The notes under the pieces were generated by a model. The model saw only the letters and a list, made by a program, of their open reading frames with translations, ran no database searches and was not told the DNA's origin. A stretch of 64,000 nt of DNA. Origin: an uncultured bacterium (GTDB lineage: Bacteria; Muiribacteriota; Ozemobacteria; Ozemobacterales; Ozemobacteraceae). Location: contig CALEDQ010000018.1 of NCBI GenBank assembly GCA_937949615.1, positions 12,161 to 76,160 on the forward strand, read 5' to 3'. How positions within the stretch are numbered: the first letter of the stretch is position 1; every line of letters starts with the position of its first letter. This document shows positions 1 to 57,782 of this stretch, piece after piece. The position numbers and the translations under genes were made by a program.

Positions 1-243
1 ATGTTGTCGCCATATCGTGAGCCCTTTTTCGGTCTGGGTTTCGCGCTTTACAGCGACAAGGGGCCCGGCCTGTTTTTCGGCCACACCGGCAACACCGAGG
101 GTTACCGGTCGATGTTCATCGCCCATGAGTCGAGCGGCTGCGGGGCATTCATTCTCGCCAACAGCAATAACGCCGACCCGGTTATCAAAGAAACAGTCAA
201 CCAGATCGCCATTTCTGAAGGCTGGCCTGGCTTTAACTGGTAA
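1..243 (+). CDS. C-terminal fragment of a serine hydrolase / beta-lactamase-fold protein (5' end outside window)
   Basis: ORF runs off the window start. Tail ...GHTGNTEGYRSMF...FILANSNN resembles the C-terminal region of class C beta-lactamase/esterase-fold proteins. A stem-loop terminator follows. Confidence 0.45.
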   Translation: MLSPYREPFFGLGFALYSDKGPGLFFGHTGNTEGYRSMFIAHESSGCGAFILANSNNADPVIKETVNQIAISEGWPGFNW

Positions 244-253
244 CCGATAAAAA

Positions 254-288
254 ACGCCCATGGAGCTTTCTCCATGGGCATTTTGGGT
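254..288 (+). terminator. Rho-independent terminator
   Basis: Seen in sequence: GCCCATGGA-gctttc-TCCATGGGC stem-loop followed by ATTTTGGGT, directly after the stop at 243. Confidence 0.6.
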
Positions 289-330
289 AATGCTTTGCTG
301 AAAGCTGCTTGTGAAAATCAGGTTGAATAT

Positions 331-525
331 GCCTGAATTTCATATCATTACCAGCCATGAAACCGGGGCCTTATAAAACCTTGCATCAGTTGCCCTGATT
401 GTTATATCGTTCTTTAAACAGCCGATTGCCGCATTGAATTGTCACGGCTTACAGAAATAACCGAGGGGCAGCGTAAAAATGACAGTTGCATCTGCAGAGA
501 TTTTACAGCAAAGAGCCGCAGTATG
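331..525 (+). repeat. Direct repeat copy A (promoter+leader cassette), roughly 80-85% identical to 9131-9335
   Basis: Seen in sequence: gcctgaatttca...cttgcatcagttgccctgattgttatatcg...cttacagaaataaccgaggggcagcg...gacagttg...cagagattttacagcaaagagcc aligns with 9131-9335. Confidence 0.8.
381..408 (+). promoter_or_regulatory. sigma70-like promoter inside repeat copy A (-35 TTGCAT, 16-nt spacer, -10 TATATC)
   Basis: TTGCAT at 381-386 and TATATC at 403-408. The same hexamers and spacing are conserved in copy B (9182-9209). Located about 115 nt upstream of the hsdR ATG. Confidence 0.5.
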
Positions 526-2904
526 AGCAAAAAGCAGCTCTCAGAACGCGATATCTGCACCAAATTCATTACCCCCGCGCTCGAAAAAGCCGGCTGGGAC
601 ATCGCAACTCAGGTGCGCGAAGAGTTTCCCATTACCAACGGCCGCATTATAGTTCGCGGCAAAATGCACACCCGCGCCAAAAATAAAAGGGCCGACTACG
701 TGCTCTTCTACAAGCCTGGTATTCCGATTGCCGTGATCGAGGCCAAAGACAACAATCATTCTGTCGGCGACGGCATGCAGCAGGCCCTCGGCTATGCCGA
801 AATGCTGCAGGTGCCCTTCGTTTTCAGCAGCAATGGTGATGCCTTTCTGTTTCATAATGCCATGACCACCGGAAAAACCGAGCAGGAAATCAGTCTCGAC
901 CAGTTTCCTGCCCCCGATCATCTCTGGAGTCTTTTGAAGAGCGGCAAAGCCATCGATTCTGACCAGGAAGCCCTGATAACCCAGGATTACTACAGCGACG
1001 GCGGCAACAAGACACCGCGCTACTACCAACTGCTGGCCATCAATAAAACCATCGAAGCAATCGCTCAGGGAAAAGACCGCATATTGCTGGTCATGGCGAC
1101 CGGCACCGGCAAAACGTTCACGGCTTTTCAGATCATCTGGCGCCTCTGGAAATCAAAAGCGAAAAAGCGCATTCTCTTTCTCGCCGACCGCAACGTGCTT
1201 GTCGACCAGACCATGACCAACGACTTCAAGCCCTTTGGCCCGGCAATGACCAAGATTCAGAAACGCCAGGTCAACAAGTCGTTCGAAATCTATCTTTCGC
1301 TGTATCAGGCCGTCACCGGCACCGAGGAAGAGAAAAACATCTACAAACAGTTCAGCCCCGGCTTTTTCGACCTGGTCGTCGTCGACGAGTGTCACCGCGG
1401 CAGTGCCGCTGAAGACTCGAACTGGCGCCAGATTCTCGAATATTTTTCCTCGGCCACCCAGATCGGTCTGACTGCGACTCCCAAAGAAACGAAAGACGTT
1501 TCCAACATCGATTATTTTGGTGAGCCAATCTACACCTACTCTCTCAAACAGGGTATCGAAGACGGCTTTCTGGCGCCTTACAAGGTTGTCCGTATCGATA
1601 TCGACAAAGACCTCGAAGGCTGGCGGCCGAAAAAAGGCATGACCGATAAAAACGGCAACCTGATAGAAGATCGCATTTTCAACCTCAAAGACATGGATCG
1701 CACGCTCGTTCTCGAAAAACGCACCGAACTGGTCGCGGCCAAAATCAGCGAGTTTCTGCGCAATACCAGCCGGTTCGACAAAACCATCGTCTTCTGCGAC
1801 AACATCGATCATGCCGAACGCATGCGCCAGGCGCTCGTCAACGAAAACGCCGACCTGGTCGCCGAAAATTCAAAATATGTCATGCGCATTACCGGCGATA
1901 ACGAAGAGGGCAAGGTCGAACTCGACAACTTCATTTTTCCCGAGTCGCGCTACCCGGTCATCGCAACCACTTCGAAGCTGATGAGCACCGGCGTCGATGC
2001 GCAAACCTGCAAACTGATCGTTCTCGACCAGCATATTCAGTCGATGACCGAATTCAAGCAGATAATCGGGCGCGGCACCCGCATAAATGAAGATTTCAAC
2101 AAGTATTTCTTCACGATCATGGATTTCAAAAAGGCGACTGAACTGTTCGCCGACAAAGATTTCGACGGCGACCCGGTTTCGATCTATAACCCCAGGCCCG
2201 GGCAGCCGGTAACCCCGCCCGATGATGAAGAAACCACAACTGGCGACGCTTACCCGCCCGGCGAAGAGAACATTGCAGGCGGCGGCGTTGCCGACGATTA
2301 CAGCGGCAACGGTGGCGGCCTCGAAGACGGGCAATCAGGGGCTGCCAGAAAATACTACGTCAACAACGTCGAAGTTAAGGTTTCGTCAGAGCGCGTGCAA
2401 TATTTCGATGCCAGCGGCAAACTCATCACCGAATCGCTGAAAGACTACACCCGCAAAACTCTCAGCCAGGAATTTTCAAGCCTCGACGACTTTCTCAGCC
2501 GCTGGAACAGCAGCGAGAAGAAGAAAACCATCATCGAAGAACTCGCCCGCGAGGGTGTCTTTTTCGAAGCTCTGGCCGAAGAGATCGGCAAAGACCTCGA
2601 CCCGTTCGACATCGTCTGCCACGTAGCCTGGGATATGCCGCCCCTGTCGCGCAAAGAGCGCGCCGAGAACGTTAAAAAGAAAAACTATTTCACGAAATAT
2701 GGGGAAAAGGCCCGCCGGGTTCTCGTTGCACTGCTTGACAAGTATGCCGACGAAGGCGTGACTCATATCGAAGAAACCCAGATTCTGACTGTAGACCCCT
2801 TCAGTCGGATCGGTACGCCTGTCGAAATCATCAGAGATTTCGGCAGCCTCGAAAACTACCGGCAGGCGGTTCTTGAACTCGAACAGGCCCTCTACTGCGC
2901 CTGA
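523..2904 (+). CDS. hsdR: Type I restriction enzyme R subunit (HsdR)
   Basis: Begins [26 protein letters not shown] (classic HsdR N-terminal nuclease region). Helicase motifs VMATGTGKT and [10 protein letters not shown] (DEAH). Annotated from ATG 523 rather than ORF start 439, because 439-522 lies inside the repeat/leader. RBS-poor, but ATGA-overlapped by a leader uORF. Confidence 0.9.
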
Positions 2905-2922
2905 TTTAACGGAGAAAACGCA

Positions 2923-4374
2923 ATGTCTATCACCACCCTCATCAAAACCATTCAGGACATCATGCGCAAAGACGTCGGCGTTGACGGCGATGCCCAGAGA
3001 ATCAGCCAGATGGCCTGGTTGCTTTTTCTCAAAATTTTCAGCGACAAGGAAGCCGAATGGGAACTGACTGTCAGCGGCTATAAATCGCCACTGCCGTCGA
3101 GGTTCCGCTGGGCGAACTGGGCCGGCAACCCCGAAGGCATAACCGGCGAGGAACTGATCGACTTCGTTAACAACAATCTTTTTCCGGCGCTCAAAAAGCT
3201 TGCCACCACTGCCGGCGTCAGCGAACAGGGCAAGGTCGTCGGCAGCGTCTTCGAAGATGCCTACAACTACATGAAATCAGGCACCCTGCTGCGTCAGGTC
3301 ATCAACACCATCGAAGAAAACTTCGACTTCAATTCTTCAGCTGACCGGCACCTGTTCAACGATATCTACGAAAAAATTCTGGCTGACCTGCAGTCAGCCG
3401 GCAATGCCGGCGAATATTACACGCCCCGCGCCGTCACGCAGTTCATGGTCGACATCATCGATCCGCAGCTCGGCGAGACGGTTCTCGACCCGGCCTGCGG
3501 CACCGCGGGTTTTCTGACCAGCACCATCGAGCATCTGCAGAAGCAGGTAAAGACTCCCGATGACCGCAAATGTATCGCCACCTCGATCAACGGCGTCGAA
3601 AAAAAGCCGATGCCGCACATGCTGGCAGTTACGAACGTCATGTTGCATGGTATCGATGTTCCGAGCAGAATCAGACACGACAACACCCTGACCAGGCCGC
3701 TCAAAGATTATGGCCCGCGCGACCGTGTCGACATCGTCATCACCAACCCGCCATTTGGCGGCATGGAAGAAGACGGAATCGAAAACAATTTTCCGAAAAA
3801 ATATCAGACCCGCGAAACGGCCGACCTGTTCATGGCGCTGATTATGCACCTTCTCAAACCTGATACGGGCAGGGCCGCCGTGGTTCTTCCCGACGGCTTT
3901 CTCTTCGGCGAAGGGGTTAAAACGACGCTCAAACGCGAGCTTCTCGAAGAATTCAATCTGCATACGATTGTACGGCTGCCCAAGGGCGTTTTCAGCCCCT
4001 ATACCGGCATCAATACGAACATTCTCTTTTTCGAAAAGGGAAAACCGACGCAGCATGTCTGGTTTTTCGAACACCCCTACCCTGAAGGGTACAAGTCGTA
4101 TTCGCGGTCAAAGCCGCTGACCATTCAGGAATTCGACCGTGAAAAAGCCTGGTGGAACAATCGCAAAACCACCGAACACGCCTGGAAAGTGCCGGTCGAA
4201 GAAATCGTCGCCCGCAATTACAATCTCGACTGCAAAAACCCGCATGTAACCGAAGTAAATCATCGTGACCCCGAAGAGCTGATGGCCGAATATCAACAGA
4301 CAGTCGCCCGGTTAAAAGCCGTGCAGCAGGCTCTCAAAGCCGAGCTGATCGCCTGTCTCGGAGACAAGACATGA
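2923..4374 (+). CDS. hsdM: Type I RM N6-adenine DNA methyltransferase subunit (HsdM)
   Basis: HsdM N-terminal domain (KDVGVDGDAQRISQMAWLLFLKIF), SAM motif LDPACGTAGFL and catalytic NPPFG. RBS GGAGA 8 nt upstream. Confidence 0.93.
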   Translation: MSITTLIKTIQDIMRKDVGVDGDAQRISQMAWLLFLKIFSDKEAEWELTVSGYKSPLPSRFRWANWAGNPEGITGEELIDFVNNNLFPALKKLATTAGVSEQGKVVGSVFEDAYNYMKSGTLLRQVINTIEENFDFNSSADRHLFNDIYEKILADLQSAGNAGEYYTPRAVTQFMVDIIDPQLGETVLDPACGTAGFLTSTIEHLQKQVKTPDDRKCIATSINGVEKKPMPHMLAVTNVMLHGIDVPSRIRHDNTLTRPLKDYGPRDRVDIVITNPPFGGMEEDGIENNFPKKYQTRETADLFMALIMHLLKPDTGRAAVVLPDGFLFGEGVKTTLKRELLEEFNLHTIVRLPKGVFSPYTGINTNILFFEKGKPTQHVWFFEHPYPEGYKSYSRSKPLTIQEFDREKAWWNNRKTTEHAWKVPVEEIVARNYNLDCKNPHVTEVNHRDPEELMAEYQQTVARLKAVQQALKAELIACLGDKT

Positions 4375-4447
4375 GTATCTGCAGATTTGTTACTCTGACT
4401 GAGAATTTGAAAGACCTGTTTGTGCAAGAGCCTCTTGCACAAATATT

Positions 4448-4681
4448 GTGCCGATGAAATGCGCATATTGTGCTGAAAATTCAGAAGAAACTGTGGAAAA
4501 AATTATTCAGGCCATTAAAAATGACCCCTGCATAACTATTGAAAAGTTGAGCCAGATAACAGAGTTATCGACAAGGGGCATTGAATGGAATCTGAAAAAG
4601 CTCAAGGAAGCCGGTCGCATAACAAGAGTCGGGCCAAGAAAGGGCGGACACTGGAAAGTTCTGAATCCGGAAAATGAATAA
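4448..4681 (+). CDS. Small winged-helix DNA-binding protein (wHTH, 77 aa) embedded between hsdM and hsdS
   Basis: Motif ...ITIEKLSQITELSTRGIEWNLKKLKEAGRITRVGPRKGGHWKV resembles C-terminal wHTH modules of Fic/AlbA-type regulators. Its stop overlaps the hsdS ATG (ATGAATAA). Confidence 0.5.
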   Translation: MPMKCAYCAENSEETVEKIIQAIKNDPCITIEKLSQITELSTRGIEWNLKKLKEAGRITRVGPRKGGHWKVLNPENE

Positions 4682-6380
4682 AGAAACACGCAAGTTGCTT
4701 GATAAACACTTCGAAACTGCTTTTGATACGCCCGACGGCATAAAGAAGCTGCGTGAGCTGATTCTGACTCTGGCCATGCGGGGCAGACTCGTGCCACAAG
4801 ACCAGAACGATCAGCCGGCCAGCGAACTGTTAAAAGAAATCGCCGCCGAAAAAGACCGCCTGATCAAAGAAGGCAAACTCAAACCGCAAAAACCCCTGCC
4901 TCCAATCGACCCCAAAGAAATCCCCTATCAGCTTCCAAAAGGTTGGGAATGGGTTAGATTGCAAAACGCTTTTGATGTTCGCGATGGAACGCATGATACG
5001 CCTAAATATACTGTTTCAGGCTTTCCATTAATTACCAGTAAAAATCTCTATACCGGAAGACTTAGTTTTGAAGACGTGAAGTTCATTTCGGAGCATGATC
5101 ATAATCGAATAAAGGAACGTTCTAGAGTAGATCTTGGTGACATTCTTTTTGCCATGATTGGTAGTATTGGCAATCCAGTTATAGTGGAATGTGAGCATGA
5201 GTTTTCAATAAAAAATGTGGCTCTTTTCAAGTTTTATAAGGCAAACACACCGGAAAGATTGTTTTTACATAACTTTTTGCTATCCTCTCAAACCGCGATG
5301 AAAGCAATCTCATCTGGAGCTGTGCAAAGCTTTGTTTCTTTAAATTTTATTAGAAATTATTTATTTCCGCTACCGCCGCTTGCTGAGCAAAAGCGTATTG
5401 TGGCGCGGGTTGAGCAGTTGATAGCGCGTTGTGATGAGCTTGAGAAGCTGCGGGCGGCGAGAGACGAAAAACGGCTCGAAACGCATGCGGCGGCGCTGAA
5501 TGCGCTGTTTGCTGCCGCTGACAGCGGCGATTTCAGCACTGCCTGGAAATTCATCAGCCGCAATTTCGACGAACTGTATACGGTGAAAGAAAACGTCGCC
5601 GAACTGCGCAAAGCCATTCTGCAACTGGCCGTCATGGGCAGACTCGTGCCCCAGGACCCGAACGACCAGCCCGCCAGCGAACTGCTAAAAGAAATCGCCG
5701 CCGAAAAAGCCCGCCTGATCAAAGAAGGCAAACTCAAACCACAAAAACCCCTGCCTCCAATCGACCCCAAAGAAATCCCTTATAAGCTTGCAAAAGGTTG
5801 GGAATGGGTAAGGTTTGATCAATTAATTGATCAACGCTTTCCTATTTCCTACGGGGTTCTTGTTCCCGGTCCAGATACCGAAGATGGTGTTCCATTTGTA
5901 AGAATTGAGGATCTTACAATCAAGAACCCCAAAGAAAAACCTGGAAAAAGAATTGGGCAAGACATTGCATCTAACTATGAACGCACAAAACTAGAAGGGG
6001 GAGAGATTTTAATGGGTGTCGTCGGAAGCATCGGAAAACTGGGCATTGCACCAGAAAGTTGGAAGGGAGCTTATATAGCAAGAGCAGTATGCCGAATATT
6101 TCCATCTTCACAAGTTGATAAGAAATATATTTTATGGATTCTTCAAAGCAATTTCATGCAAACTTGTTTTGCTAGTGAAACAAGGACTCTTGCCCAACCA
6201 ACACTAAATATTGGGCTCATAAGGGCTGCGCTAACTCCTTTGCCGCCACTTGAGGAGCAAAAGCGGATTGTAGCGCGGGTTGAGCAGTTGATGGCATTGT
6301 GCGATGGTCTCGAACAGAGTATTGCCGCTGCTGACGGCAGTCGGGCGGCTCTTCTCGATTCACTGATGGCAAATGTATGA
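4674..6380 (+). CDS. hsdS: Type I RM specificity subunit (HsdS) with two target-recognition domains
   Basis: Two AT-rich target-recognition domains (TRDs) separated by duplicated conserved helices: RGRLVPQD..NDQPASELLKEIAAEK..RLIKEGKLKPQKPLPPIDPKEIPY twice, and PLPPL(A/E)EQKRIVARVEQL twice. This is the standard circular HsdS architecture. Confidence 0.9.
   Translation: MNKETRKLLDKHFETAFDTPDGIKKLRELILTLAMRGRLVPQDQNDQPASELLKEIAAEKDRLIKEGKLKPQKPLPPIDPKEIPYQLPKGWEWVRLQNAFDVRDGTHDTPKYTVSGFPLITSKNLYTGRLSFEDVKFISEHDHNRIKERSRVDLGDILFAMIGSIGNPVIVECEHEFSIKNVALFKFYKANTPERLFLHNFLLSSQTAMKAISSGAVQSFVSLNFIRNYLFPLPPLAEQKRIVARVEQLIARCDELEKLRAARDEKRLETHAAALNALFAAADSGDFSTAWKFISRNFDELYTVKENVAELRKAILQLAVMGRLVPQDPNDQPASELLKEIAAEKARLIKEGKLKPQKPLPPIDPKEIPYKLAKGWEWVRFDQLIDQRFPISYGVLVPGPDTEDGVPFVRIEDLTIKNPKEKPGKRIGQDIASNYERTKLEGGEILMGVVGSIGKLGIAPESWKGAYIARAVCRIFPSSQVDKKYILWILQSNFMQTCFASETRTLAQPTLNIGLIRAALTPLPPLEEQKRIVARVEQLMALCDGLEQSIAAADGSRAALLDSLMANV
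4773..4957 (+). repeat. Intragenic direct repeat in hsdS (copy 1 of conserved-region repeat, about 92% identical to 5633-5813)
   Basis: Seen in sequence. Encodes the conserved HsdS helix. Such repeats are a substrate for TRD reassortment. Confidence 0.85.
5633..5813 (+). repeat. Intragenic direct repeat in hsdS (copy 2)
   Basis: Aligns with 4773-4957. A second shorter pair lies at 5368-5445 / 6238-6320. Confidence 0.85.
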
Positions 6381-6397
6381 TATTTTCGTGATCAGGC

Positions 6398-7303
6398 ATG
6401 AATTACAAACGAAACCATAAATTTCCGAGCCGGTCCAGTTTCTGGGATGCGGTGAATACTTTCGGCGAAGATATGGTTTATCGCCGCAACGATCCGCCGA
6501 TAAAGCCTGAATTCCAGATTTTTCTTGAAACCGAAACTCATTATATGATCTGCGACCTGCGCCTGCGCGACAAATTGACCGATGCAGAACATCTAAAGAA
6601 GCTCGACGAAGAAGTATTTAAATTGACCGAACATAGAATCAACGCGGTCAGACGCATCAACCCTGACGGCCGCGCCGAATACATATACAAAAGGCCGAAT
6701 GGCGTAATTCTGACGCCTGACTTTCATTTCGACACCTATGTTAAATTCTGCTTCAATTTCCGTGATTACGTTAAACTGGTCTACTGCTCCAACAAAAAAG
6801 AAACGGGTGATGAGTTCAATAAAAATTTCCACTCTTTCTTCTGCAGATGGTTCACCGACTCGCGCGGCAAGGAGCTCAAATCGGTCTACTGTGAACAACA
6901 GTGGTTTCCGGATGTTAAAAAGTGGCTGCTCAAAAAAAAGCAGAACCCGGCTTATTCGGTGCCACACTCAGAATTCAAAGACACCCCGATTGAAGGCCGG
7001 TTAGAGGGCATTCTGTTCAAAAACGGGATTGCATACACCAAGCAGGCTGAATTTTTTCAGCACGAAATGAAACTCACTGTTCCAGACTTTCTGCTTGAAA
7101 AGCAGAAAATTGCAATTTACTGCGATGGCACTGAGTTTCACAAAGACACCCAGGCCATCATCCGCGACAAAGTGCAGGATAGAAGGCTGCAAATCAATGG
7201 CTACATGGTCCTGAGATTTTCAGGTTCCGAAATATTGGGCGATATCGCGCTCTGCGAGCGCGATATTCTCGACGCGATAAAGACAAGAGAATCAAAAAGC
7301 TGA
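6398..7303 (+). CDS. Uncharacterised protein with C-terminal DUF559 / Vsr-like PD-(D/E)XK endonuclease-type domain
   Basis: C-terminus IAIYCDGTEFHKDTQAIIRDKVQDRRLQINGYMVLRFSGSEI matches the DUF559 signature (xDGxxH...RD..R...L...G..VLRF). The N-terminal roughly 200 aa has no recognisable family. Begins 18 nt after the hsdS stop. Confidence 0.6.
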   Translation: MNYKRNHKFPSRSSFWDAVNTFGEDMVYRRNDPPIKPEFQIFLETETHYMICDLRLRDKLTDAEHLKKLDEEVFKLTEHRINAVRRINPDGRAEYIYKRPNGVILTPDFHFDTYVKFCFNFRDYVKLVYCSNKKETGDEFNKNFHSFFCRWFTDSRGKELKSVYCEQQWFPDVKKWLLKKKQNPAYSVPHSEFKDTPIEGRLEGILFKNGIAYTKQAEFFQHEMKLTVPDFLLEKQKIAIYCDGTEFHKDTQAIIRDKVQDRRLQINGYMVLRFSGSEILGDIALCERDILDAIKTRESKS

Positions 7304-7376
7304 CTCAGTTTTCGCGTTCGCCTGGCGCCGCCTGATAGCCGCTCGGAACTTTACGTAGTATATTCAGACAGGCAGG

Positions 7377-8369
7377 ATGGGACTGGAGGTAAGAAATGCC
7401 GTTTCCCGTAGTTGTCCACAAAGAGGGCAAAAGCTCGTTCGGGCCAGGTTTATGAAAGATTACAGACTGATTTTTGAAGTAGTGCATGGCAGTCAGGCTT
7501 TTGGCCTGGATGGCCCGGGCTCAGACCTCGATTTGAAAGGCGTGATTATCGGGCCGGCGTTCTGGTATTTTGGTTTTTTAGAAAGCCCTGAACAGCTCGT
7601 TCTTAACAAGGATCACACGCTTTTCGAACTCCGGAAATTTTTCAGACTGGCAATAGATGCCAACCCGACTGCAATCGAGATGCTGTGGGCTCCCCAGAAC
7701 TGCATCAGAGAGTGCTCTCCAATGGCCGAAAAGCTGCTGAGTGCCAGAGAAAAGTTTTTATCTCTCAAAGTGGCAGACAGTTTCGGCAAATACGCCCTCT
7801 CACAGCTGCGCCGCATCAAAACTCATCGCAGATGGCTGCTTGAACCGCCCAAAACACAGCCACAAAGAGAGGAATTCAATCTGCCCGGCAAACCCGTCTT
7901 TTCAGATGACCAGATTGGTGCGGCTGAATCATTGATTGAAAGCGGCAAGTTGACACATGCCGATCTGCCGCCAAATTTCATGCTGATACTCGACCGTGAA
8001 AGAAGTTATCGTGCCGCCATCAAGGAATGGCAGCAGTTTCAAACCTGGCAGAAAGAGAGAAACCCGGCGAGAGCAAAGCTGGAGAAAGAATTCGGCTATG
8101 ATACAAAGCACGCCTTGCACCTTGTCAGGCTCTTAAGAATGGCACTCGAGATATTAATTTCAGGTGAAGTAATCGTTCGCAGACCAGACCGAGAAGAGCT
8201 TCTGGCAATCAAACAGGGAACCTGGAAATTCGACCAGCTAATTGAATACGCCGAGTCGATGAATCAGAAAATCCTTGAGGCCAGAAACCGCAGCAGTCTG
8301 CCTGAGTTTCCCGACAATGAAAGTCTCAATCTATTATGCACAGAAATTCTGAGAGGTTGTTTTGCATGA
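7377..8369 (+). CDS. Pol-beta superfamily nucleotidyltransferase, paralog 1 (alternative start ATG 7452)
   Basis: hGS-x9-DhD motif: VHGSQAFGLDGPGSDLDLKGV. C-terminal helical domain. Paralogous to the next ORF. The stop overlaps the next start (ATGA). Confidence 0.65.
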   Translation: MGLEVRNAVSRSCPQRGQKLVRARFMKDYRLIFEVVHGSQAFGLDGPGSDLDLKGVIIGPAFWYFGFLESPEQLVLNKDHTLFELRKFFRLAIDANPTAIEMLWAPQNCIRECSPMAEKLLSAREKFLSLKVADSFGKYALSQLRRIKTHRRWLLEPPKTQPQREEFNLPGKPVFSDDQIGAAESLIESGKLTHADLPPNFMLILDRERSYRAAIKEWQQFQTWQKERNPARAKLEKEFGYDTKHALHLVRLLRMALEILISGEVIVRRPDREELLAIKQGTWKFDQLIEYAESMNQKILEARNRSSLPEFPDNESLNLLCTEILRGCFA

Positions 8370-9136
8370 TTGAAAAAAAACAGATAGAGCTCGGCCAGGA
8401 ATTCGTTTCCAGAAATTTTGACAAGGGAAAGCTGCTGCTGGTTGCGGTAACTGGCAGTCATTTTTATGGGTTTCCGGCTCCGGACAGCGATCTGGATCTG
8501 AAAGGCATTCACGCGGCCCCTACCAGGCAGATACTTGCACTCGAAAAACCTGCGTCGGCACACAATGTTGAGGAAATGTGGCGAAACTGTCTCTGCGATT
8601 TTTCCAGCAATGAAATAGAACAGGCTTTGCGACTTCTGATAAAGGGAAACGGCAACATGCTCGAGAGAATATTTTCCCCTTATCAGCTTTTTGAAACAGA
8701 AGAAGCGACGCGATTGAAAGAAATAAAGACCGCTTATCTTTCACAACGATTCTTTCATCATTACACCGGCTTTTTTCAGAAAAAATGCGCTGAGTTTGCG
8801 AAGAGCGATTTTTACCTCATCAAGCCTTTGCTCTATATCTACAGAGTCGCTCTGACCGGGATTCATCTTCTGAAAACGGGCGAGGTCATTGGTGATGTGC
8901 GAAAACTGGCGCCAGAATACGGCTTTTCTGAGGTTGATGAGCTGATAAAAATCTACTCTGCGACTTCTGAAAAAAAGTCGCTTGATAAAGCTTCTGCAAG
9001 CCAGTTCGTTGCAAGATGGCCAGAGCTTGAGAACAAGCTGAACGATGCCCTCAGCACCAGCTGTCTGCCGGAAGTTCCGGGCGACCCTGATGCCTGTTCC
9101 GACCTGCTGGTTGAAATCAGATTGAAATCTGCCTGA
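8366..9136 (+). CDS. Pol-beta superfamily nucleotidyltransferase, paralog 2
   Basis: VTGSHFYGFPAPDSDLDLKGI motif, similar layout to paralog 1 (RlaP-like minimal NTase fold by recollection). Start chosen at MIEKKQ with GAGAGG RBS. Confidence 0.65.
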   Translation: MIEKKQIELGQEFVSRNFDKGKLLLVAVTGSHFYGFPAPDSDLDLKGIHAAPTRQILALEKPASAHNVEEMWRNCLCDFSSNEIEQALRLLIKGNGNMLERIFSPYQLFETEEATRLKEIKTAYLSQRFFHHYTGFFQKKCAEFAKSDFYLIKPLLYIYRVALTGIHLLKTGEVIGDVRKLAPEYGFSEVDELIKIYSATSEKKSLDKASASQFVARWPELENKLNDALSTSCLPEVPGDPDACSDLLVEIRLKSA

Positions 9137-9335
9137 ATTTCAGGTCATTGCTGGCCTTGAAAACTGAGGTCTTATTCAATCTTGCATCAATTAACCTGAT
9201 TGTTATATTGTTTTTTAACAGCCTATTTTACCCCATTGATATTGTAACGACTTACAGAAATAACCGAGAGGTCGCGTGAGGATGGCAGTTTTTTTTATCA
9301 CCAGAGACTTTGCAGAAGAAAGCCAAACAACCTTT
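9131..9335 (+). repeat. Direct repeat copy B (promoter+leader cassette)
   Basis: Aligns with 331-525. Lies between the NTase2 stop and the tcmP start. Confidence 0.8.
9182..9209 (+). promoter_or_regulatory. sigma70-like promoter inside repeat copy B (-35 TTGCAT, 16-nt spacer, -10 TATATT)
   Basis: Hexamers conserved in position with copy A. About 160 nt upstream of tcmP. Confidence 0.5.
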
Positions 9336-9371
9336 CTGAATGTCTGTATGGCAAAATTTTGAGGTTTAATA

Positions 9372-10493
9372 ATGACAGAAAAACTTCACAGCAAGCCATT
9401 TGATGAGGGAACCAGACTGAAATTAAATATTTTCCGAAAGTGCTTTCGTGAATGGCTGCCGGTTTTTATTCACAATCCGAAGATTGATAAAATTTTCGTT
9501 TATGATTTCTTTGCCGGGCCAGGCCGTGATTCGGAGGGCACGCCCGGCAGTCCTCTTATATTGCTGGAAGAGGCGCGCGGCGCTGATTTACAGTATTGCA
9601 AAACCGGAAAAATCAAAGATGTTATTTTTGGTTTCAATGACAAAAACGAGTCAGAGACGCTTAAACAAAACATTGCCGCGTATTTCAATCAGTGCTGCCA
9701 AAGGAATTGTAAAAAGAAAGAATGTCTCTACGAAAAGAAATGTCATTGTGCAAATCTTGATTTTAAAAGCCTTTTTGCCAGCGAGAACCTGAAAAAAATA
9801 CTGGCAAACAAATCTTTTGCCAAATTCATCCTGCTTGATCAATACGGTTTCAGCCAGGTTGATGAGGAAGTTTTCAGAAAACTCGCTGGTTCCCCAATGA
9901 CCGATTTTATTTTTTTTATAGCTTCATCTTTTGTCGACCGGTTCAAAGACCACGAATACACCAGAAAGTATCTCAATACAGAAAAGATTGATTTCTCTTC
10001 GGTAAAACCTGTTCAAAGGCACGGTTTAATCGCTGATTACTTTGCATCACTGGTTAACAAACCTGAATTCTATCTACATCATTTCACAATAAGAAAGGGC
10101 TCCAATCATTATGGGCTGATTTTTGGAACAAATCACACATACGGAATGGAGAAATTTCTTAAAGTCTGCTGGGAAGAAGATACATTTGCCGGCGAATCAA
10201 ATGACAACAAATGGGGTGATGAGCAGGAAGGAAGCCTGTTTTTTGGAATTGAGCCCCCGAAAAAAATTGAAGCAGTCAAGGCTGAGCTTAGGGAAATGCT
10301 ACTTCAAGGTAAAATCGACAACAATATCAACGGGCTTAAAACGGCAATGAGAAAGAGATGCCGGCCTAAAGTTTTTGTTGAAGTAGTCAGGCAGCTTGAA
10401 AAAGAAAAGAAAATAGAAAGAATCGGTGAAACGGTAAATAATCGTGCTGAAAGGATACACGAAATTCCTGAATACAAAATCAGGCCACTTTAG
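9372..10493 (+). CDS. tcmP: Three-Cys-motif partner protein (TcmP family)
   Basis: N-terminus ...KLNIFRKCFREWLPVF...VYDFFAGPGRDSEGTPGSPLILLEE matches my recollection of the TcmP family (TIGR04474). That family is invariably encoded next to a Gp37/Gp68 protein, as here. Unusual Cys-rich insert CCQRNCKKKECLYEKKCHC. AT-rich codon usage. Confidence 0.65.
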   Translation: MTEKLHSKPFDEGTRLKLNIFRKCFREWLPVFIHNPKIDKIFVYDFFAGPGRDSEGTPGSPLILLEEARGADLQYCKTGKIKDVIFGFNDKNESETLKQNIAAYFNQCCQRNCKKKECLYEKKCHCANLDFKSLFASENLKKILANKSFAKFILLDQYGFSQVDEEVFRKLAGSPMTDFIFFIASSFVDRFKDHEYTRKYLNTEKIDFSSVKPVQRHGLIADYFASLVNKPEFYLHHFTIRKGSNHYGLIFGTNHTYGMEKFLKVCWEEDTFAGESNDNKWGDEQEGSLFFGIEPPKKIEAVKAELREMLLQGKIDNNINGLKTAMRKRCRPKVFVEVVRQLEKEKKIERIGETVNNRAERIHEIPEYKIRPL

Positions 10494-10525
10494 GGTATAC
10501 TTATTGAGAGTTTAAAGGGGTTTAA

Positions 10526-11242
10526 ATGGCAAGCAACAGCACAATTGAATGGACTCAAATCACCTGGAACCCGGTTACCGGGTGCACAAAAATCAGCTCC
10601 GGATGCAAAAACTGCTATGCTGAACGTATGGCCCGACGCCTGCATCTGATGCGCAGTAAAAGATACATAAACGAATTCAAGGTTACTCTACACGAAGATC
10701 TTCTTGATTTCCCCAAAAAACTACGAAGCGGGAAAAGGATTTTTGTTAATTCAATGAGTGATCTTTTTCATGAAGATGTTCCGCTCGAATTCATTCAGAA
10801 AGTTTTTCAAACAATGAATGAGTGCCGACAACACGTCTTTCAAGTTCTTACAAAAAGAAGCAAAAGACTTGCTGAACTTGCTGGAAAGCTTTCCTGGTCA
10901 GAAAACATCTGGATAGGCGTAACCGTTGAAGACAACACCAATAAAGACAGAATTGCCGACCTTAGAGCTGTTCCGGCCAAAGTCAGGTTTATTTCATTTG
11001 AGCCGTTGATTTCCGAAATAAAAAAACCCGATTTAACCGGCATTAACTGGATAATAGTCGGTGGCGAATCTGGCCCTGGAGCCAGACCCATTGTCAAAGA
11101 ATGGGTTGAAGCCCTGCAGAGAAACGCCCAGCAGTTTGATATTCCGTTCTTTTTCAAGCAATGGGGCGGAACAAACAAGAAAAAAAGCGGCAAGCTGTTA
11201 AATGGTCAGATGTTTCAGGAAAGCCCGGCTTTCGCCCTCTGA
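10526..11242 (+). CDS. Phage Gp37/Gp68 family protein (DUF5131), three-Cys motif
   Basis: Canonical N-terminus MASNSTIEWTQITWNPVTGCTKISSGCKNCYAE (IEWT..TWNP..GC...S.GC..CYA). Good RBS GGGG. Confidence 0.8.
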   Translation: MASNSTIEWTQITWNPVTGCTKISSGCKNCYAERMARRLHLMRSKRYINEFKVTLHEDLLDFPKKLRSGKRIFVNSMSDLFHEDVPLEFIQKVFQTMNECRQHVFQVLTKRSKRLAELAGKLSWSENIWIGVTVEDNTNKDRIADLRAVPAKVRFISFEPLISEIKKPDLTGINWIIVGGESGPGARPIVKEWVEALQRNAQQFDIPFFFKQWGGTNKKKSGKLLNGQMFQESPAFAL

Positions 11243-11317
11243 AAGAAAATTTAAGATACCGATTCTCTGCATCTTTCTAAGCACCTGACACAGCAAAACC
11301 CTTCATCGGTCAAGTCC

Positions 11318-11362
11318 TAAAAACAGGCACCGCCATCCATTGGATGACGGTGCCTGTAAGTT
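11318..11362. terminator. Bidirectional Rho-independent terminator between convergent genes
   Basis: AGGCACCGCCATCCATTGGATGACGGTGCCT hairpin flanked by T-runs on both strands. Confidence 0.6.
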
Positions 11363-11364
11363 TT

Positions 11365-12606
11365 TTATTTGCTGGCGGGGTTGGCGACGCGGCCCATGAA
11401 GAGGATGCTGCCGGTCGAGTTGTCGCGGACCAGGAAGATGAAGGGATGGTCAGCCTTGAACACCGGGTCCATGCTGATCGATTTGGTGGCCATTTCGACG
11501 GCGGTGGCGGCGGCGGCTTCGGTGCCTTCTTCGTTCACTTCGACGAAGGCCTTGTGCTTGATCTGCGAGATCCATAATTTGCCTTTTGGCCAGCCCATGC
11601 CGCTGAAATCAGCGACGTCCGGGGTGAAAGCGTCTTTCATGCCGAGGTCGGTGCAGGTCGGAACCAGATCATAACCGGTTTCGAGCTTGAATTTTGGCAG
11701 ATACAGCTTCACATTTTCCTCGGAGGCAGAGTCCAGTTCTGCCAGCCATGCTGCGATTTTTTCGGAGCTCAGGTCTTTTTCGAGACCGGCGAGGCCGTCG
11801 ACTTTCTGCGGCAGCACTGCGATCATTGCCAGCGATTTTCCCTTGTAAGGCATGGCGATGACCTGAAAGTCGTCTTTTTCGATGAGCTTGAAGCTGCCCT
11901 TCTGATACATGAACGGCACATTGATATTTTCTGTTGCAGACAGTCTGAAAGGGGCTTCTTTAGTCTGCTTTTCGTCGAACTGGCTTTCCCAGATGCCTTT
12001 GAAATAAATGGCATTCAAAAGAACGCAGACTGAATTTGGATCAAGCTTTTCGAGGATTTCTTCGATTTTGCCCTCGGTTTTTGTTTTTACCCAGCCGTTG
12101 ATCTTTTCGAGGTCGCCCGCGAACAGTTCAGCCGCGTAGTTTTTCTGCAGCAGGGCCTTGAATTCTTCGCTCACATCGCCGCCGGTGAGGCAGAGACCGT
12201 TGGCGATATTGAGCTTCTGACCGTCACTGTTGGCCACTGAAGCGAGTTTCTCGTTGAGCTGTCTGAACGCGTCGTGCAGCGGTTCCTGGTCGAGACCGAA
12301 AGACAAAGCTGCCTGCATTTCTGCGGCAGTATTTTCGCGGGCACCGGCATAGGTCATACCGAGCGCTGAAGAAACGCTGAATGGCGAGAAGAAGACGTTG
12401 CCACCGGCCTTGCCCAGCTGCTGATAAAGCTTAACGGCAAAGGCGCTGTTGCCTTTTACCAGGGGGGTCAGGGTAGAATCAGCCTGTTGATCTGTTGTTG
12501 TCATGGGAGCAGAACAGCAGTCTGATTCTGCTGATACTGGAGAAGCGGACGCTGCCAGTATGACGGCACAAATTACAGCACAGAATAAAACGGTGAGTCG
12601 GTTCAT
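11365..12606 (-). CDS. Serpin (serine protease inhibitor) with signal peptide
   Basis: Serpin fold hallmarks: NVFFSPFSVSSALGMTYAGA, hinge/reactive-centre-loop region EEGTEAAAATAVEMA, C-terminal PFIFLVRDNSTGSILFMGRVANP. Start placed at MNRLTVLFCAVICAV (signal peptide), not ORF start 12795. Confidence 0.85.
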   Translation of the reverse strand: MNRLTVLFCAVICAVILAASASPVSAESDCCSAPMTTTDQQADSTLTPLVKGNSAFAVKLYQQLGKAGGNVFFSPFSVSSALGMTYAGARENTAAEMQAALSFGLDQEPLHDAFRQLNEKLASVANSDGQKLNIANGLCLTGGDVSEEFKALLQKNYAAELFAGDLEKINGWVKTKTEGKIEEILEKLDPNSVCVLLNAIYFKGIWESQFDEKQTKEAPFRLSATENINVPFMYQKGSFKLIEKDDFQVIAMPYKGKSLAMIAVLPQKVDGLAGLEKDLSSEKIAAWLAELDSASEENVKLYLPKFKLETGYDLVPTCTDLGMKDAFTPDVADFSGMGWPKGKLWISQIKHKAFVEVNEEGTEAAAATAVEMATKSISMDPVFKADHPFIFLVRDNSTGSILFMGRVANPASK

Positions 12607-12854
12607 GGTATTTCCTTTCAAGGTCATGAGGGGCAATCCCGTAAGATTGTTTTCTGCTGACAATATAGTCCTATATGAGCTTACAGACAATATAATCGTT
12701 ACAACCGACCAAAAAATCGGATAATTCCGAAAATGGTTTGTATCGGTTATAATGGTTGAGAAAATTTTGTTGCCAGTCAGAATCAGATGCGGCAATGATT
12801 GATTGTCAGTGCAAAACAGCTTTTAAGCAGCTTTTTAATAGAAAGGGAAGATTA

Positions 12855-14021
12855 ATGAGCACCAACCAGGAAACCAGAAAAATTTTCGGACAGATCGCTG
12901 ATAAATACAAACTGCCGGCTCTGGCAGAGATTATCAAAAGCGACGAACACATAATCTGGAAAAAAGACATCACCATCTGTATCGCCAACATTCTCAAGGC
13001 TGCCCAGGCTGACGGAGACACGAAAGAACTGCTTAAAGACGCCAAGAATATGTATAACGGGCCGATTTTTGCGATAAATGCCGCTGAAAAGAAGTATCTC
13101 ATCAAAGCCGAGCCCGATTTTGACAAGGCCATGAAAGACCTGGCCAAATTCGACTTCTGCTTCAAACTCAGCCCTTATCACGTAATCAACACCTATCTCG
13201 CCATTCTGATCGCCCAGATCACTGAGCAAGACCCGAACGCTCTGCTCAAAAAAGGCGAAGAGCACATGGAAGCCTTTATCGCGGCTTCTCTGAAAGAAAA
13301 CAAGAACTGGAACAAAGACACGCTAACTTCAAAAAACCCGAAGCTGATCATTCCGATCGGGGCGGCCGGCTGCGGCAAATCGACCTTTTATCACGAACTG
13401 GGCAATGTGGTTAATGCCTCATGCGACAATATCAGATACATGCTGTTCAAAGAATTCGGGCCCTGCTTCGCCCCTTGGGAAAGCACGCTGGCATGGTTCG
13501 TGGTCAACCGCATGACCGACCTCTATCTCGGCCGTGGCTACAGCGTCTTCTACAACGGCGTCAATACCGATCTTGAATATCGCTCACCCATCACCATGGA
13601 AAATCCTGACGCATTGTATGCCGGCATTCCGTACCGCATGAAACTGGTCTATTTCGAGCCTACCGTCAGCCTTACCAGCAGTGAAGTCAACGAGCTCAGA
13701 GCGATCAACCTGTGGGGAACCACGCTCGACAAGGTCGATAGAAAAGGCCTGAGCCCGAATGTCTGCAAGATACTCGACCTCATTCAGACCAACACCGAAA
13801 GAACCATGGAACGCACCAAAGCGATTCGCGAAGGCAAAGCCGAACAGGACCCCTTCGACATTCTTTACCCGGTACCGCCCGCAATCGTAAAAATGTTCAT
13901 GGAACAGTCGTTTGCGAAGCCCCAGGGCCCGAACGTCGTGGTCGTGCCGCGCAAAGAGATCCCGGATGCAGCCGAACGTGCGGCTTTCTATCGCAAATAC
14001 GCCGAAATGTCTGCCAATTGA
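12855..14021 (+). CDS. P-loop NTPase / predicted kinase-like protein
   Basis: Walker A LIIPIGAAGCGKSTF. No further family assignment possible by eye. Start at MSTNQ with AAGGGAAG RBS. Confidence 0.55.
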   Translation: MSTNQETRKIFGQIADKYKLPALAEIIKSDEHIIWKKDITICIANILKAAQADGDTKELLKDAKNMYNGPIFAINAAEKKYLIKAEPDFDKAMKDLAKFDFCFKLSPYHVINTYLAILIAQITEQDPNALLKKGEEHMEAFIAASLKENKNWNKDTLTSKNPKLIIPIGAAGCGKSTFYHELGNVVNASCDNIRYMLFKEFGPCFAPWESTLAWFVVNRMTDLYLGRGYSVFYNGVNTDLEYRSPITMENPDALYAGIPYRMKLVYFEPTVSLTSSEVNELRAINLWGTTLDKVDRKGLSPNVCKILDLIQTNTERTMERTKAIREGKAEQDPFDILYPVPPAIVKMFMEQSFAKPQGPNVVVVPRKEIPDAAERAAFYRKYAEMSAN

Positions 14022-14029
14022 TCAACCGA

Positions 14030-14075
14030 TTGAAATCCCGCCCGCCTTCAAAAGGCGGGCGGGATTATTTTTACA
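14030..14075. terminator. Bidirectional Rho-independent terminator
   Basis: AATCCCGCCCGCC-ttcaaaa-GGCGGGCGGGATT followed by ATTTTT, between convergent genes. Confidence 0.75.
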
Positions 14076-14184
14076 AGAAATTCAGTTTTTAGGCCGATTA
14101 TATCTTTCTTCGTCAGCGCAGGTGATTATACAGGCAGAGTCCAGGCCTGCCTGGAATGCCGACGCTGGCCGAAGCAAGAAACTG

Positions 14185-15708
14185 TCAGATGAGAGGGCGC
14201 AGAAACTTCATGCGGCCGAAGCGTTCGAGCTTTTTCAGAACCTCGGCTTCAGTATGAGCCTCAGGGCCATAAATGACCGTAATGCGGCCGTTGGCTTCAA
14301 CGCGGATTTTGTATTCAAGACATCTGGCGAAGTCTTTTTCCATGCGTAACGCCAGGCGACGGGCAAAAGGCTCATAGTTGATCACCGATACGACTTCTGA
14401 ATTGATGACCATGCTCAACGGGTCGAGGTTATAGGTGCCGACGACTGCGATCTGGCGGTCGAAGACAAAAGCTTTGGTATGTATACATGGCATTCCCTTT
14501 GGGTATACGAGTATGCGCGCGGTGGGCATGGTAGCCAGAAGCCGTTTCCAGTCGGTGAGAAAGAAGGCGACGGTCGATGGGTGGTTTGTCGATTCGCCAC
14601 TGTTGGTGCAGAGGAAGATTTTAACTCCGCGCTTTGAGGCACGGCGAAGGGCCGCTTCAGCTGCCTCATCCAGCACGACGTAGGCATTTTGAATGAGAAT
14701 TTCGCTATTGGCGGCATCGATCATGCGAATCAGATTCGGCCCGATATCGCGCCTGGTGCCAAGCAGTGAATGACGGTCGAGAATGCGCACCGGCATGGTT
14801 CTTTCGCCCTGAAACGGTCTAAACGAGTTATAAGAAGACAGCTTTTTGAAACCCGATAACTGCCGGCAAAGTTCCTGAGCCGTTTTTTCCAGGCCGCGGG
14901 GAAAGTCGAGTCTGCTCAGGTCGGGAACGCCCATTCCCTGCAGGTAGCGGTTCATCAGGTGATAAGCCAGATCGAGTTTTGCGCCCTGCGAGACGAAGTT
15001 AACCGGGTCGCTGTGAACCACCCGGTTTGTCAGGGCTTTCCACTCTTCGTCGAAAGCCAGCTGCAGCTGGCTGACAACGCCGGGGCCTTCCATGAGAACA
15101 TCGAGATCCTGAAAAACATTGGTGAATTCGCCGAGCTGAACGAAGTAATCGCGCCCGATATTGCGACCGCCGGTAAGGCAGATACGGCTGTCGGCAATGA
15201 TTATCTTGTCGTGGTTCGACGCGAAAATTTTGCGCACATCGCCAAGCGCCGGAAGAATCTGGCGCCCGATCGGATTGTAGATTTTTATTTCGACGTTTGG
15301 TTCGCGGGCCAGCTCTTCAAGTTCATCGTAATCATGCAATTTTTTCGCGCTGCGCATAAAGCGGTCATCGACCATAAGGCGGATGTTCACACCCTGGCGC
15401 GCCTTTTTGCGCAGAAGTCCGAGAAATGAGAATCCGAAAATATCCTGGTCGACGATAAAGTAAGTTATTGTCAGTGATTTTTTTGCGCTCTCGATCAGGT
15501 GCCAGCGCGCATACCAGGCTTCTTCGTTGCCTGTGAGAAGCCTTACCCTCGCTGAATCACCCATAGGAGTCACAGGGAAAGAAGCGAAGACGCTGCTCAG
15601 GCTTTCATTTTCTGCGGCGACTGCAGGCAATGGCATGCCAGCCAGCATACCGAGCACCAGCAGAACAGCAAAAAACCGGCAAAAAAGTTTTTGGGCAAGA
15701 TATTTCAT
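14185..15708 (-). CDS. Secreted phospholipase D family protein (two HKD motifs; cardiolipin-synthase-like)
   Basis: Two HxKxxxxD motifs (HDKIIIAD..GGRNIG and HTKAFVFD..GTYNLD). N-terminal signal peptide MKYLAQKLFCRFFAVLLVLGMLAG. Confidence 0.85.
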   Translation of the reverse strand: MKYLAQKLFCRFFAVLLVLGMLAGMPLPAVAAENESLSSVFASFPVTPMGDSARVRLLTGNEEAWYARWHLIESAKKSLTITYFIVDQDIFGFSFLGLLRKKARQGVNIRLMVDDRFMRSAKKLHDYDELEELAREPNVEIKIYNPIGRQILPALGDVRKIFASNHDKIIIADSRICLTGGRNIGRDYFVQLGEFTNVFQDLDVLMEGPGVVSQLQLAFDEEWKALTNRVVHSDPVNFVSQGAKLDLAYHLMNRYLQGMGVPDLSRLDFPRGLEKTAQELCRQLSGFKKLSSYNSFRPFQGERTMPVRILDRHSLLGTRRDIGPNLIRMIDAANSEILIQNAYVVLDEAAEAALRRASKRGVKIFLCTNSGESTNHPSTVAFFLTDWKRLLATMPTARILVYPKGMPCIHTKAFVFDRQIAVVGTYNLDPLSMVINSEVVSVINYEPFARRLALRMEKDFARCLEYKIRVEANGRITVIYGPEAHTEAEVLKKLERFGRMKFLRPLI

Positions 15709-15962
15709 GAGAGTCCCCCCTGATGCGGAAAGCAAAAAAATTCAGAACAGTAAAAGTATACAGCAATGTAATCAGGTGAACAATGCTAAGCACATCAGGC
15801 CAAACGGAAGTACCCCGGCTCATACTGTTGCAATGCAAAGAAGCTCGATAATATCGGAGATTAATAATTGTTTATTGCCATTTTTTGCGCTAATCTTGAA
15901 GACAAGACATTCTCAAAGATGGATATCTCATCGGGAATACCTTAAAAACTGATTCGCGGAGG

Positions 15963-19985: not shown

Positions 19986-19989
19986 GAAA

Positions 19990-20048
19990 CCGGGCCCTCC
20001 AGCGAACAGAACTCAATAACTGTTTGCCGGAGGGTCTTTTTTTTCAAG
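19990..20048 (+). terminator. Rho-independent terminator
   Basis: CCCTCCAGCGAACAG...CTGTTTGCCGGAGGG hairpin followed by TCTTTTTTTT. Confidence 0.7.
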
Positions 20049-20068
20049 AAGATTCCAGCCGGCTGAAT

Positions 20069-20362
20069 TCAGCCATCACCATTCCGCGCGGCATTTCTCT
20101 CTGATTCAAGGCTGGCGACCAGTTCGAGATAGAGATTTTCGACCTTTTTGCGGGCCCAGTCGTTTTTGCGCAGAAATGTGAGACTTGATTTAATGCTGGG
20201 ATGGCTGAAAAAGCAGTTGAGCTCGACCCGCTGATTCAGATCTTTCCAGCTGTAGTGTTCACGCAGCACCGTCAGTATTTTTTCGAGAGTGATACCGTGA
20301 AGCGGGTTGTTTGGCTGCTGCCGCATCTTTTTTTCGTCGGCCGGAATATCGTTTTCAGTCAT
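20069..20362 (-). CDS. VF530/DUF2132-like small conserved protein
   Basis: [20 protein letters not shown]...[28 protein letters not shown] resembles the DUF2132 (VF530) family. Confidence 0.55.
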
Positions 20363-20448
20363 CGGGGTTCCTGTTCAACTGTAATGTTCAAAGAATGACG
20401 CGCCCTTATTATACTGCAGTTTTTCTGAGAATCACCGATTTAATCGTG

Positions 20449-20486
20449 CAAAAAATAAAGTCGGGCCGGATAACCGGCCCGACCAG
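20449..20486 (-). terminator. Rho-independent terminator for the 20555-21523 gene
   Basis: On the minus strand GTCGGGCCGGTTATCCGGCCCGAC followed by TTTATTTTTT. Confidence 0.6.
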
Positions 20487-20554
20487 ATAATTCGAATCGC
20501 CTATTCATAGGCTTTTTTTCAATTGCCGACAGGCAAAGACTTAGCCTCTAAGTA

Positions 20555-57714: not shown

Positions 57715-57782
57715 AAATTCATAACGCAGCGATCAATCAAACCAAAAGTTCGAAATCAATACTTCAAACAGGAGTTTCTAAA

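Follow-up and report, generated by a model that had tools for sequence, protein, structure and literature searches.

Why do two unrelated defence operons of one bacterium begin with the same stretch of DNA? The question is raised by a direct repeat in a 64,000-nt segment of contig CALEDQ010000018.1 (positions 12,161 to 76,160, forward strand; here called the window) from an uncultured member of the Ozemobacteraceae. Copy A of the repeat lies directly upstream of hsdR, the first gene of a type I restriction-modification (R-M) operon that ends with two RlaP-family nucleotidyltransferase genes, RlaP1 and RlaP2. Copy B follows RlaP2 and lies directly upstream of tcmP, the first gene of a tcmP-DUF5131 pair. 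A first-pass annotation had suggested either a cis-regulatory leader shared by several immunity modules or a recombination scaffold for the exchange of defence cassettes at a fixed hotspot. We consider it fairly probable that the repeat is a duplicated promoter region, reused to head two unrelated defence operons.

According to this reading, a single segment of about 220 nt, made up of roughly 30 nt of RlaP2 tail, a stem-loop, a sigma-70-like promoter with an extended −10 element and a leader of about 110 nt, would have been duplicated. Copy B would have stayed behind an intact RlaP2; copy A would have been displaced, changed at about a quarter of its positions, and come to form the left edge of the present island. 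Copy A would supply the promoter of hsdR-hsdM-wHTH-hsdS-DUF559-RlaP1-RlaP2 (wHTH denoting a small winged-helix gene) and copy B that of tcmP-DUF5131, the promoter region having been reused while the island was assembled.

Extent, divergence and copy number of the repeat

Copies A (~305-522) and B (~9104-9335) are homologous over about 220 nt, as seen both in MAFFT alignments and by BLASTN (222 nt, 76% identity, E = 2e-36), which establishes that the repeat and its position in front of hsdR and tcmP are real. A repeat scan resolved two collinear ungapped blocks, one of 58 nt at 81% identity (360-417 and 9161-9218) and one of 50 nt at 82% (438-487 and 9241-9290). Homology starts at ~305 and ~9104, with weak similarity from ~290 and ~9090, and ends at 522 and ~9328-9335. 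The unit thus begins about 26 nt further 5′ than positions 331 and 9131, where it had first been placed. Identity amounts to 71% when gap columns are counted (165/232) and to 76-77% in local alignments. The 80-85% reported earlier is reached by three blocks alone, namely the first 40 nt comprising the gene tail and hairpin (81%), the promoter block (87%) and an 18-mer (100%); outside them the copies agree at 55-69% of positions. The longest identical run is 18 nt and is not longer than this level of identity predicts (shuffle P = 0.11).

Neither patterns with up to three mismatches nor an nhmmer profile of the two copies detected a third copy in the 64-kb window. With only two copies and a left end that is the tail of a gene, the unit does not have the features of a miniature inverted-repeat transposable element or another small non-autonomous transposon. 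Terminal inverted repeats common to both copies were not found, and neither were target duplications.

A displaced gene tail at the 5′ end of the unit

Copy B opens with the coding end of RlaP2, which takes up ~33 nt (...CSDLLVEIRLKSA*, stop codon at 9134-9136). The C-terminal motif CSD[W/L]L[V/I]xxRL[K/R] persists down to 45% identity among the 18 family members that were aligned, and the closest RlaP2 genes of other Riflebacteria (loci L034, L037 and L038) end with the same motif. At these three loci the coding tail is the sole overlap with the repeat; nothing 3′ of the stop codon matches. Because the 5′ end of the unit is a conserved coding tail of this family, we infer that the unit arose as the end of RlaP2 together with the intergenic region that follows it. 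The corresponding tail of copy A reads LLVKIRL up to a 1-nt indel, is non-coding, and lies just past the terminator of the left-flank gene. To judge from the two sequences, copy B is the original context and copy A an old, displaced copy with a dead gene tail.

The tail overlaps an imperfect stem-loop in copy A (Table 1). The stem-loop of copy B is weaker, uses other pairing and has a z-score of −1.9; in the related locus L023 it is lost. A terminator scan listed positions 318-336 of copy A as weakly terminator-like (six pairs, three of them GC), and copy B was not listed. As a real U tract is missing 3′ of the hairpin in either copy, the stem-loop does not look like a canonical terminator.

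A conserved promoter-like site

The most conserved part of the repeat is the block around the putative promoter. The conserved TTGCAT-16-TATAT[C/T] arrangement noticed in the first-pass annotation was recovered in both copies by direct reading, and a TGn extension of the −10 element can be added to it. The full pattern TTGCAT-16-TGnTATAT[C/T] is invariant in 7/7 sequences (three A-type, three B-type and one half-copy), and a pattern search of the window returned the two copies only. Between strains, the copy B promoter part shows one or two differences in 64 nt. The extended −10 element makes promoter activity plausible. It is the −35/spacer/−10 block that was kept. Whatever acts at this promoter would therefore probably have like effects on the two operons, and shared regulation of both is plausible to that extent.

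A more specific form of such control would be a shared operator, with one dedicated DNA-binding regulator acting on both copies and co-controlling both operons. The candidate is a 62-aa winged-helix protein, a potential regulator from within the operon, whose gene lies between hsdM and hsdS and overlaps the start of hsdS; its HTH_24 match (E = 8e-8) was obtained on a longer, 77-aa open reading frame (ORF; 4448-4681). Candidate sites are a palindrome, ATCAG-N5-CTGAT, in the −35/−10 spacer of copy A (385-399), and an inverted repeat, TGAAA(A)TCAG...CTGAATTTCA, which is found upstream of the promoter in both copies. The strong conservation of the promoter block would fit as well. However, the palindrome carries one mismatch in copy B, and palindromes of the 5-N5-5 type are not enriched (5 found against 2.1 expected, a number reached by 7/100 shuffles). 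No third promoter in the 64 kb has the site, and a regulon search with the spacer palindrome and the promoter pattern gave no extra sites beyond chance. Furthermore, nothing links the winged-helix protein to either candidate site, and promoter function alone would explain the conservation equally well. We therefore regard a dedicated common regulator as unlikely.

The leader regions

Downstream of the promoter, the putative 5′ untranslated regions (5′-UTRs) of hsdR and tcmP share homologous leaders; the last ~36 nt of the tcmP leader (9336-9371) are specific to this gene and hold its GAGG ribosome-binding site. A structured cis-regulatory RNA, either riboswitch-like or protein-binding and common to both operons, had been one way of understanding the conservation of the leader. 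The leaders are indeed long for bacterial 5′-UTRs, and an 18-nt block, CUUACAGAAAUAACCGAG (18-mer CTTACAGAAATAACCGAG), varies neither between the copies nor among strains. Yet a scan of the whole window against Rfam 15 returned no family at the gathering score. Folded as single sequences, the leaders were no better than shuffles, with z-scores in listed order of +1.47 (A) and +0.49 (B), and the consensus fold of six leader sequences reached only −5.5 kcal/mol, with two compensated pairs among two independent lineages, a number that limits the power of covariation. Moreover, change has been faster in the core of the copy B leader than in the genes on either side: it diverges by 9-10% between strains as compared to 3-4.5% in RlaP2 and tcmP and 0-3% in the hairpin and promoter. 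An identical run of 18 nt is expected by chance at the given identity, and, chance matches apart, the 18-mer is absent from all other species in GTDB. A functional leader RNA is thus hardly credible here.

The leader does not appear to be translated either. The first-pass annotation had taken the N-terminal extension of hsdR in the ORF list (439-522) for leader rather than coding sequence. This proved correct: the HsdR profile match starts with the protein at ATG 523, gene callers report a 793-aa product on public contigs, and the aligned copy B carries indels. An upstream ORF was likewise rejected, as the aligned ATG at 479 and 9282 becomes ATA in two B-type strains (L011, L020) and frame-breaking indels separate the two leaders.

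Distribution among strains and the edge of the island

Among 185,579 GTDB species, 10 stretches contain the 18-mer without mismatch. Chance accounts for eight of them, and the two true matches are the A and B loci of one same-species metagenome-assembled genome (MAG; CAZFUG01), in which gene order is unchanged and identity is ~96%. The promoter pattern retrieved two contigs from the JGI metagenomes, representing the B locus (97%) and the A locus (92%). Plasmids searched with copy A and phages searched with copy B by BLASTN gave no match, and viral contigs contained the 18-mer as one chance match only. The nhmmer profile was also run on ~45 fetched loci, among which were three further RlaP1-RlaP2 loci and the site in six alternative arrangements; a half-copy in L023-L025 was the only match. 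The suggestion that the repeat heads several modules thus finds no counterpart outside the two loci in the window, the species-representative MAG and the JGI metagenomes, and in BLASTN, pattern and profile checks the unit was not seen in front of other defence genes. Look-ups with the exact TcmP, RlaP2 and HsdR proteins covered 19, 15 and 10 contigs, respectively; gene order was the same throughout, and no A/B hybrid or other cargo between the copies was present among them.

In the JGI A-locus contig (L021) hsdR is fused to the end of hsdM, through either a true deletion in that strain or a chimeric assembly. At its positions 585-640, window positions 775-789 are joined to 4322-4376 over a 14-nt near-identical microhomology, TGCAGCAGGC[C/T]CTC. 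The next ORF (ATG at 634) has no DNA similarity to the wHTH-hsdS stretch of the window; judging from its sequence, it may encode a DUF1016/YhcG-like protein.

Comparison of strains revealed that copy A coincides with a boundary. Against the sister (species-representative) MAG, a sliding comparison gave 84-93% identity over the left 2.4 kb (mean ~90%), versus 94-100% from ~320 onwards (mean ~97%, some 200-nt stretches at 100%). The edge was compared with L012 and L042, setting window positions 1-320 against 321-3540, and the same step is present in L021; the contig of the sister MAG extends to window position ~11320. Divergence between strains is highest (31-43%) in the spacer that holds the terminator of the left-flank gene. 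The step at ~300-320 thus places the left edge of an 11-kb island at the left end of copy A, which means that the repeat belongs to the island and not to the chromosomal flank. To judge from these identities, exchange of the island between strains appears to postdate the divergence of the flank. Conservation of the copy A core as a sign of selection was considered and rejected, because the whole island is ~97% identical and the core is unexceptional within it.

A variable site in related genomes

Sites in relatives were located through homologues of the left-flank gene, which encodes a beta-lactamase-family serine hydrolase. Six right-hand neighbours other than that of the window were found, which brings the total to at least seven. 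The flank-gene protein is followed by a 388-aa gene, located at 12.8 kb in the window, in L026 (86% protein identity), by a VF530 gene in L030 (89%), by EamA and then a serpin gene in L032 (88%), and by a subtilase in L033 (79%). In L028 (Ca. Rifleibacterium amylolyticum; 78%) it is followed by a different defence cluster (11122-20937), which consists of an RloB/AAA_21 pair and an unrelated type I R-M system with a GIY-YIG gene. In L023-L025 (92%) the serpin gene follows directly. The site is a variable, defence-prone locus, as the first-pass annotation had supposed for this neighbourhood. Its idea of a fixed hotspot holds insofar as the site varies between relatives; the hotspot is independent of the repeat, however, as the profile search found no trace of the unit in L026, L030, L032, L033 or L028.

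Further along, the window has a PLD-family gene with weak DrmC-like PADLOC matches and a gene for a 1340-aa protein without a Pfam match (14185-19985). Both come after the 388-aa gene in the window and in L003, and in L002 and L023 an ABC-transporter cluster occupies this place instead. The PLD gene sits upstream of the beta-lactamase-family gene in L023 and L030, indicating that the region has been rearranged.

Loci L023-L025 lack both cassettes but keep the 5′ half of copy A (equivalent to window 305-425), with the tail, a decayed stem-loop and the promoter. The half-copy, which is followed by ~110 nt of unrelated sequence and a terminator, matches A at 90% of positions and B at 76%. Because it is A-type, the duplication predates the split of this lineage. 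Most simply, L023-L025 would be deletion derivatives that lost everything from the leader through DUF5131. An ancestral empty site is a less parsimonious view of L023, in which the RlaP2 tail is already present and a promoter without a gene of its own points at a terminator.

The cassette-free loci are also among the observations that would fit a recombination scaffold, in which the direct repeats serve as arms or sites for insertion, excision or swapping of defence cassettes at a hotspot, be it by homologous recombination or by an unknown site-specific system. The repeats directly flank an 8.6-kb cassette, copy A forms the left edge of the island, and the breakpoint in L023-L025 lies inside copy A (~425). 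The RlaP2 tail on copy A would suit a circular or tandem intermediate, and one of the six alternative neighbours is a different defence cluster. Nevertheless, exchange has left no mark in the look-up contigs, where gene order is fixed and neither A/B hybrids nor alternative cargo occur. Efficient RecA-dependent exchange usually needs ~23-27 bp of identity; the copies, 71-77% identical overall and with no identical run longer than 18 bases, fall short of this. Family scans of the region 523-11242 found no recombinase or integrase domain in or next to the cassette, and the copies share neither terminal inverted repeats nor target duplications. Relatives with other content at the site carry no copy of the repeat. 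Comparing strains for presence or absence of the cassette, as the first-pass annotation had advised, did yield a cassette-free state, but one that is without both cassettes and hence not a clean product of recombination between A and B. A scaffold for cassette exchange is thus very unlikely. We see only a faint chance for a related scenario, in which the repeat would be the junction sequence of an unrecognised way of building defence islands, one that is recombinase-independent or acts in trans, and cassettes would be circular or tandem units with their own promoter and leader that integrate at a resident copy. Copy A offers three hints of this: it carries an RlaP2 tail, it coincides with the edge of the island, and in L023-L025 the breakpoint falls within it. 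New modules would then come with their connection to the same promoter and regulator in place.

The duplicated promoter region, which we favour, has points against it as well. The −35 hexamer matches TTGACA at only 3/6 positions, for which reason a generic sigma-70 scanner omits the site. Promoter activity, the direction and mechanism of the duplication and shared regulation are all inferred. Selection on copy A cannot be shown, because between island-bearing strains it is no better conserved (~3% divergence) than the adjacent hsdR (1.4-3%). Finally, the searches for further copies used two exact patterns and a profile on fetched loci, which diverged copies could escape.

Comparison with known systems

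Homologous DNA upstream of non-homologous genes has been described as putative mobile promoters (PMPs), for which two-member families are the commonest family size (68%) and typical pairs have a mean identity of 92% over ~66 nt (Matus-Garcia, Nijveen & van Passel 2012; PMC3488235). The present pair resembles them in being a two-member family of homologous non-coding DNA in front of two non-homologous genes. HsdR (EcoAI) and TcmP (TIGR04474) have no domain in common, and the upstream genes, for a beta-lactamase-family protein and RlaP2, are non-homologous too, save for the ~30-nt dead RlaP2 tail kept in copy A. The PMP survey compared fixed windows from −150 to −51 and required at least 50 nt at 80% identity or more (PMC3488235). 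In these windows 44 nt of the two copies align at 86%, just under the length threshold, because the start codons are offset by ~40 nt. In contrast to typical PMP pairs, the copies described here are older and more diverged (71-77% over 220 nt) and carry a gene-tail remnant that reveals their origin.

The site also resembles defence islands at chromosomal hotspots in that contents differ downstream of one conserved gene, with unrelated defence systems in two lineages (type I R-M plus TcmP/DUF5131 versus RloB/AAA_21 plus type I R-M). In contrast to a clean two-anchor hotspot, its flanks are rearranged between relatives, and the repeat is not a general feature of the site. A bracketed cassette with a promoter at its left edge recalls integrons with their Pc/attI-attC arrays and Xer-dependent dif modules. 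However, no integrase or other recombinase is encoded in 523-11242, and neither attC-like nor 11-6-11 Xer-type sites are present; the copies are diverged and number only two, and the cassette is not polymorphic in the population. C-protein control of type II R-M systems likewise involves a small helix-turn-helix gene within the R-M operon and a palindrome at the promoter. C proteins belong to an Xre-type family, whereas the protein encoded here, in a type I system, matches the winged-helix family HTH_24, and no C-box-like tandem palindromes were identified.

The pair adds an example to a type of event that has been described before, and is restricted to a single species-level lineage. It provides a dated and traceable case, from the poorly studied candidate phylum Riflebacteria, of a promoter region copied together with a gene tail and apparently put to use in driving an unrelated defence operon, and it draws attention to the region behind a conserved serine-hydrolase gene as variable and prone to defence systems. 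If the two operons were co-regulated, the type I R-M/nucleotidyltransferase operon would be functionally linked to the uncharacterised TcmP-DUF5131 pair, which would give a slight clue to what that pair does. The findings leave the understanding of defence-island biology as it was, and their practical value is modest.

Gene content of the locus

The genes assigned to the locus in the first-pass annotation (hsdRMS, DUF559, two nucleotidyltransferases and then TcmP) were recovered, together with the small winged-helix gene that had been overlooked (Table 1). Judging from their tight spacing, the genes from 523 to 9136 form an operon-like string. The serine hydrolase of the left flank has orthologues in Riflebacteria, and a serpin gene lies past DUF5131 on the opposite strand. 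The organism itself belongs to Candidatus Riflebacteria, to judge from the names given to homologues.

Table 1. Positions of the repeat copies, their parts and the surrounding genes in the window
Feature	Position	Strand	Details and evidence
Beta-lactamase-family (PF00144) serine hydrolase, 3′ end; chromosomal left flank	1-243	+	Pfam, gene call
Intrinsic terminator of the left-flank gene, GC-rich hairpin and T run	256-285	+	10-bp stem, 7 GC pairs
Copy A of the repeat, complete unit; forms the island's left edge	305-522	+	alignments, BLAST, identity step
Dead RlaP2-type 3′ end remnant in copy A	305-336	+	aligns to 9104-9136; TGA equivalent at 334-336
Imperfect stem-loop of copy A, TGAAAATCAGG...CCTGAATTTCA	310-344	+	−14.4 kcal/mol, z −3.7
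Putative promoter A	381-408	+	−35 TTGCAT 381-386, 16-nt spacer, TG 400-401, −10 TATATC 403-408
Putative hsdR 5′-UTR (copy A leader), ~107 nt, non-coding	416-522	+	indels, profile start
hsdR, EcoAI/FtnUII family	523-2904	+	profile from residue 6 of the protein at ATG 523
hsdM	2923-4374	+	Pfam, PADLOC, NCBIfam
Winged-helix (wHTH) gene, 62 aa as called on public contigs	4493-4681	+	HTH_24
hsdS	4674-6380	+	Pfam, PADLOC, NCBIfam
DUF559/Vsr-like protein	6398-7303	+	Pfam, PADLOC, NCBIfam
RlaP1, RlaP-family nucleotidyltransferase	7452-8369	+	family scans
RlaP2, RlaP-family nucleotidyltransferase	8336-9136	+	family scans
Repeat copy B, whole unit	9104-9335	+	first 33 nt are the functional RlaP2 3′ end and stop
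Putative promoter B	9182-9209	+	TTGCAT, 16-nt spacer, TG 9201-9202, TATATT 9204-9209
Putative tcmP 5′-UTR, ~155 nt	9217-9371	+	9217-9335 homologous to the copy A leader
tcmP	9372-10493	+	TIGR04474, 116.7 bits (cut-off 53)
DUF5131 partner of tcmP	10526-11242	+	PF07505; with tcmP the PADLOC candidate defence pair PDC-M30 (A/B)

Within hsdS there are two internal direct repeats, one of 200 nt at 90% identity (4761-4960 and 5616-5815) and one of 78 nt at 78% (5366-5443 and 6236-6313). Parts of the gene cannot be aligned between strains (L002 1-560; L011 2204-2646). Taken together, this looks like swapping of target-recognition domains.

The overlapping genes RlaP1 and RlaP2 (7377-9136) recur as a pair in L034, L037 and L038 in differing neighbourhoods; in L037 an integrase, RhuM, Fic and a KAP NTPase are encoded nearby. 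The pair may thus be a mobile two-gene module.

Further repeats in the window

A second repeat of a promoter plus downstream sequence, ~400 nt long and 74-88% identical, occupies 57681-58109 and 60731-61150. It stems from the duplication of an ordinary gene, as a TTGAC[A/G]-type promoter precedes each of two genes for 108-aa paralogues (57783-58109 and 60824-61150). A 164-nt tandem repeat (56936-57303, 74%) lies inside a minus-strand gene (56179-57519) that encodes three SH3_3 domains and a C39-like peptidase domain, and thus consists of domain repeats.

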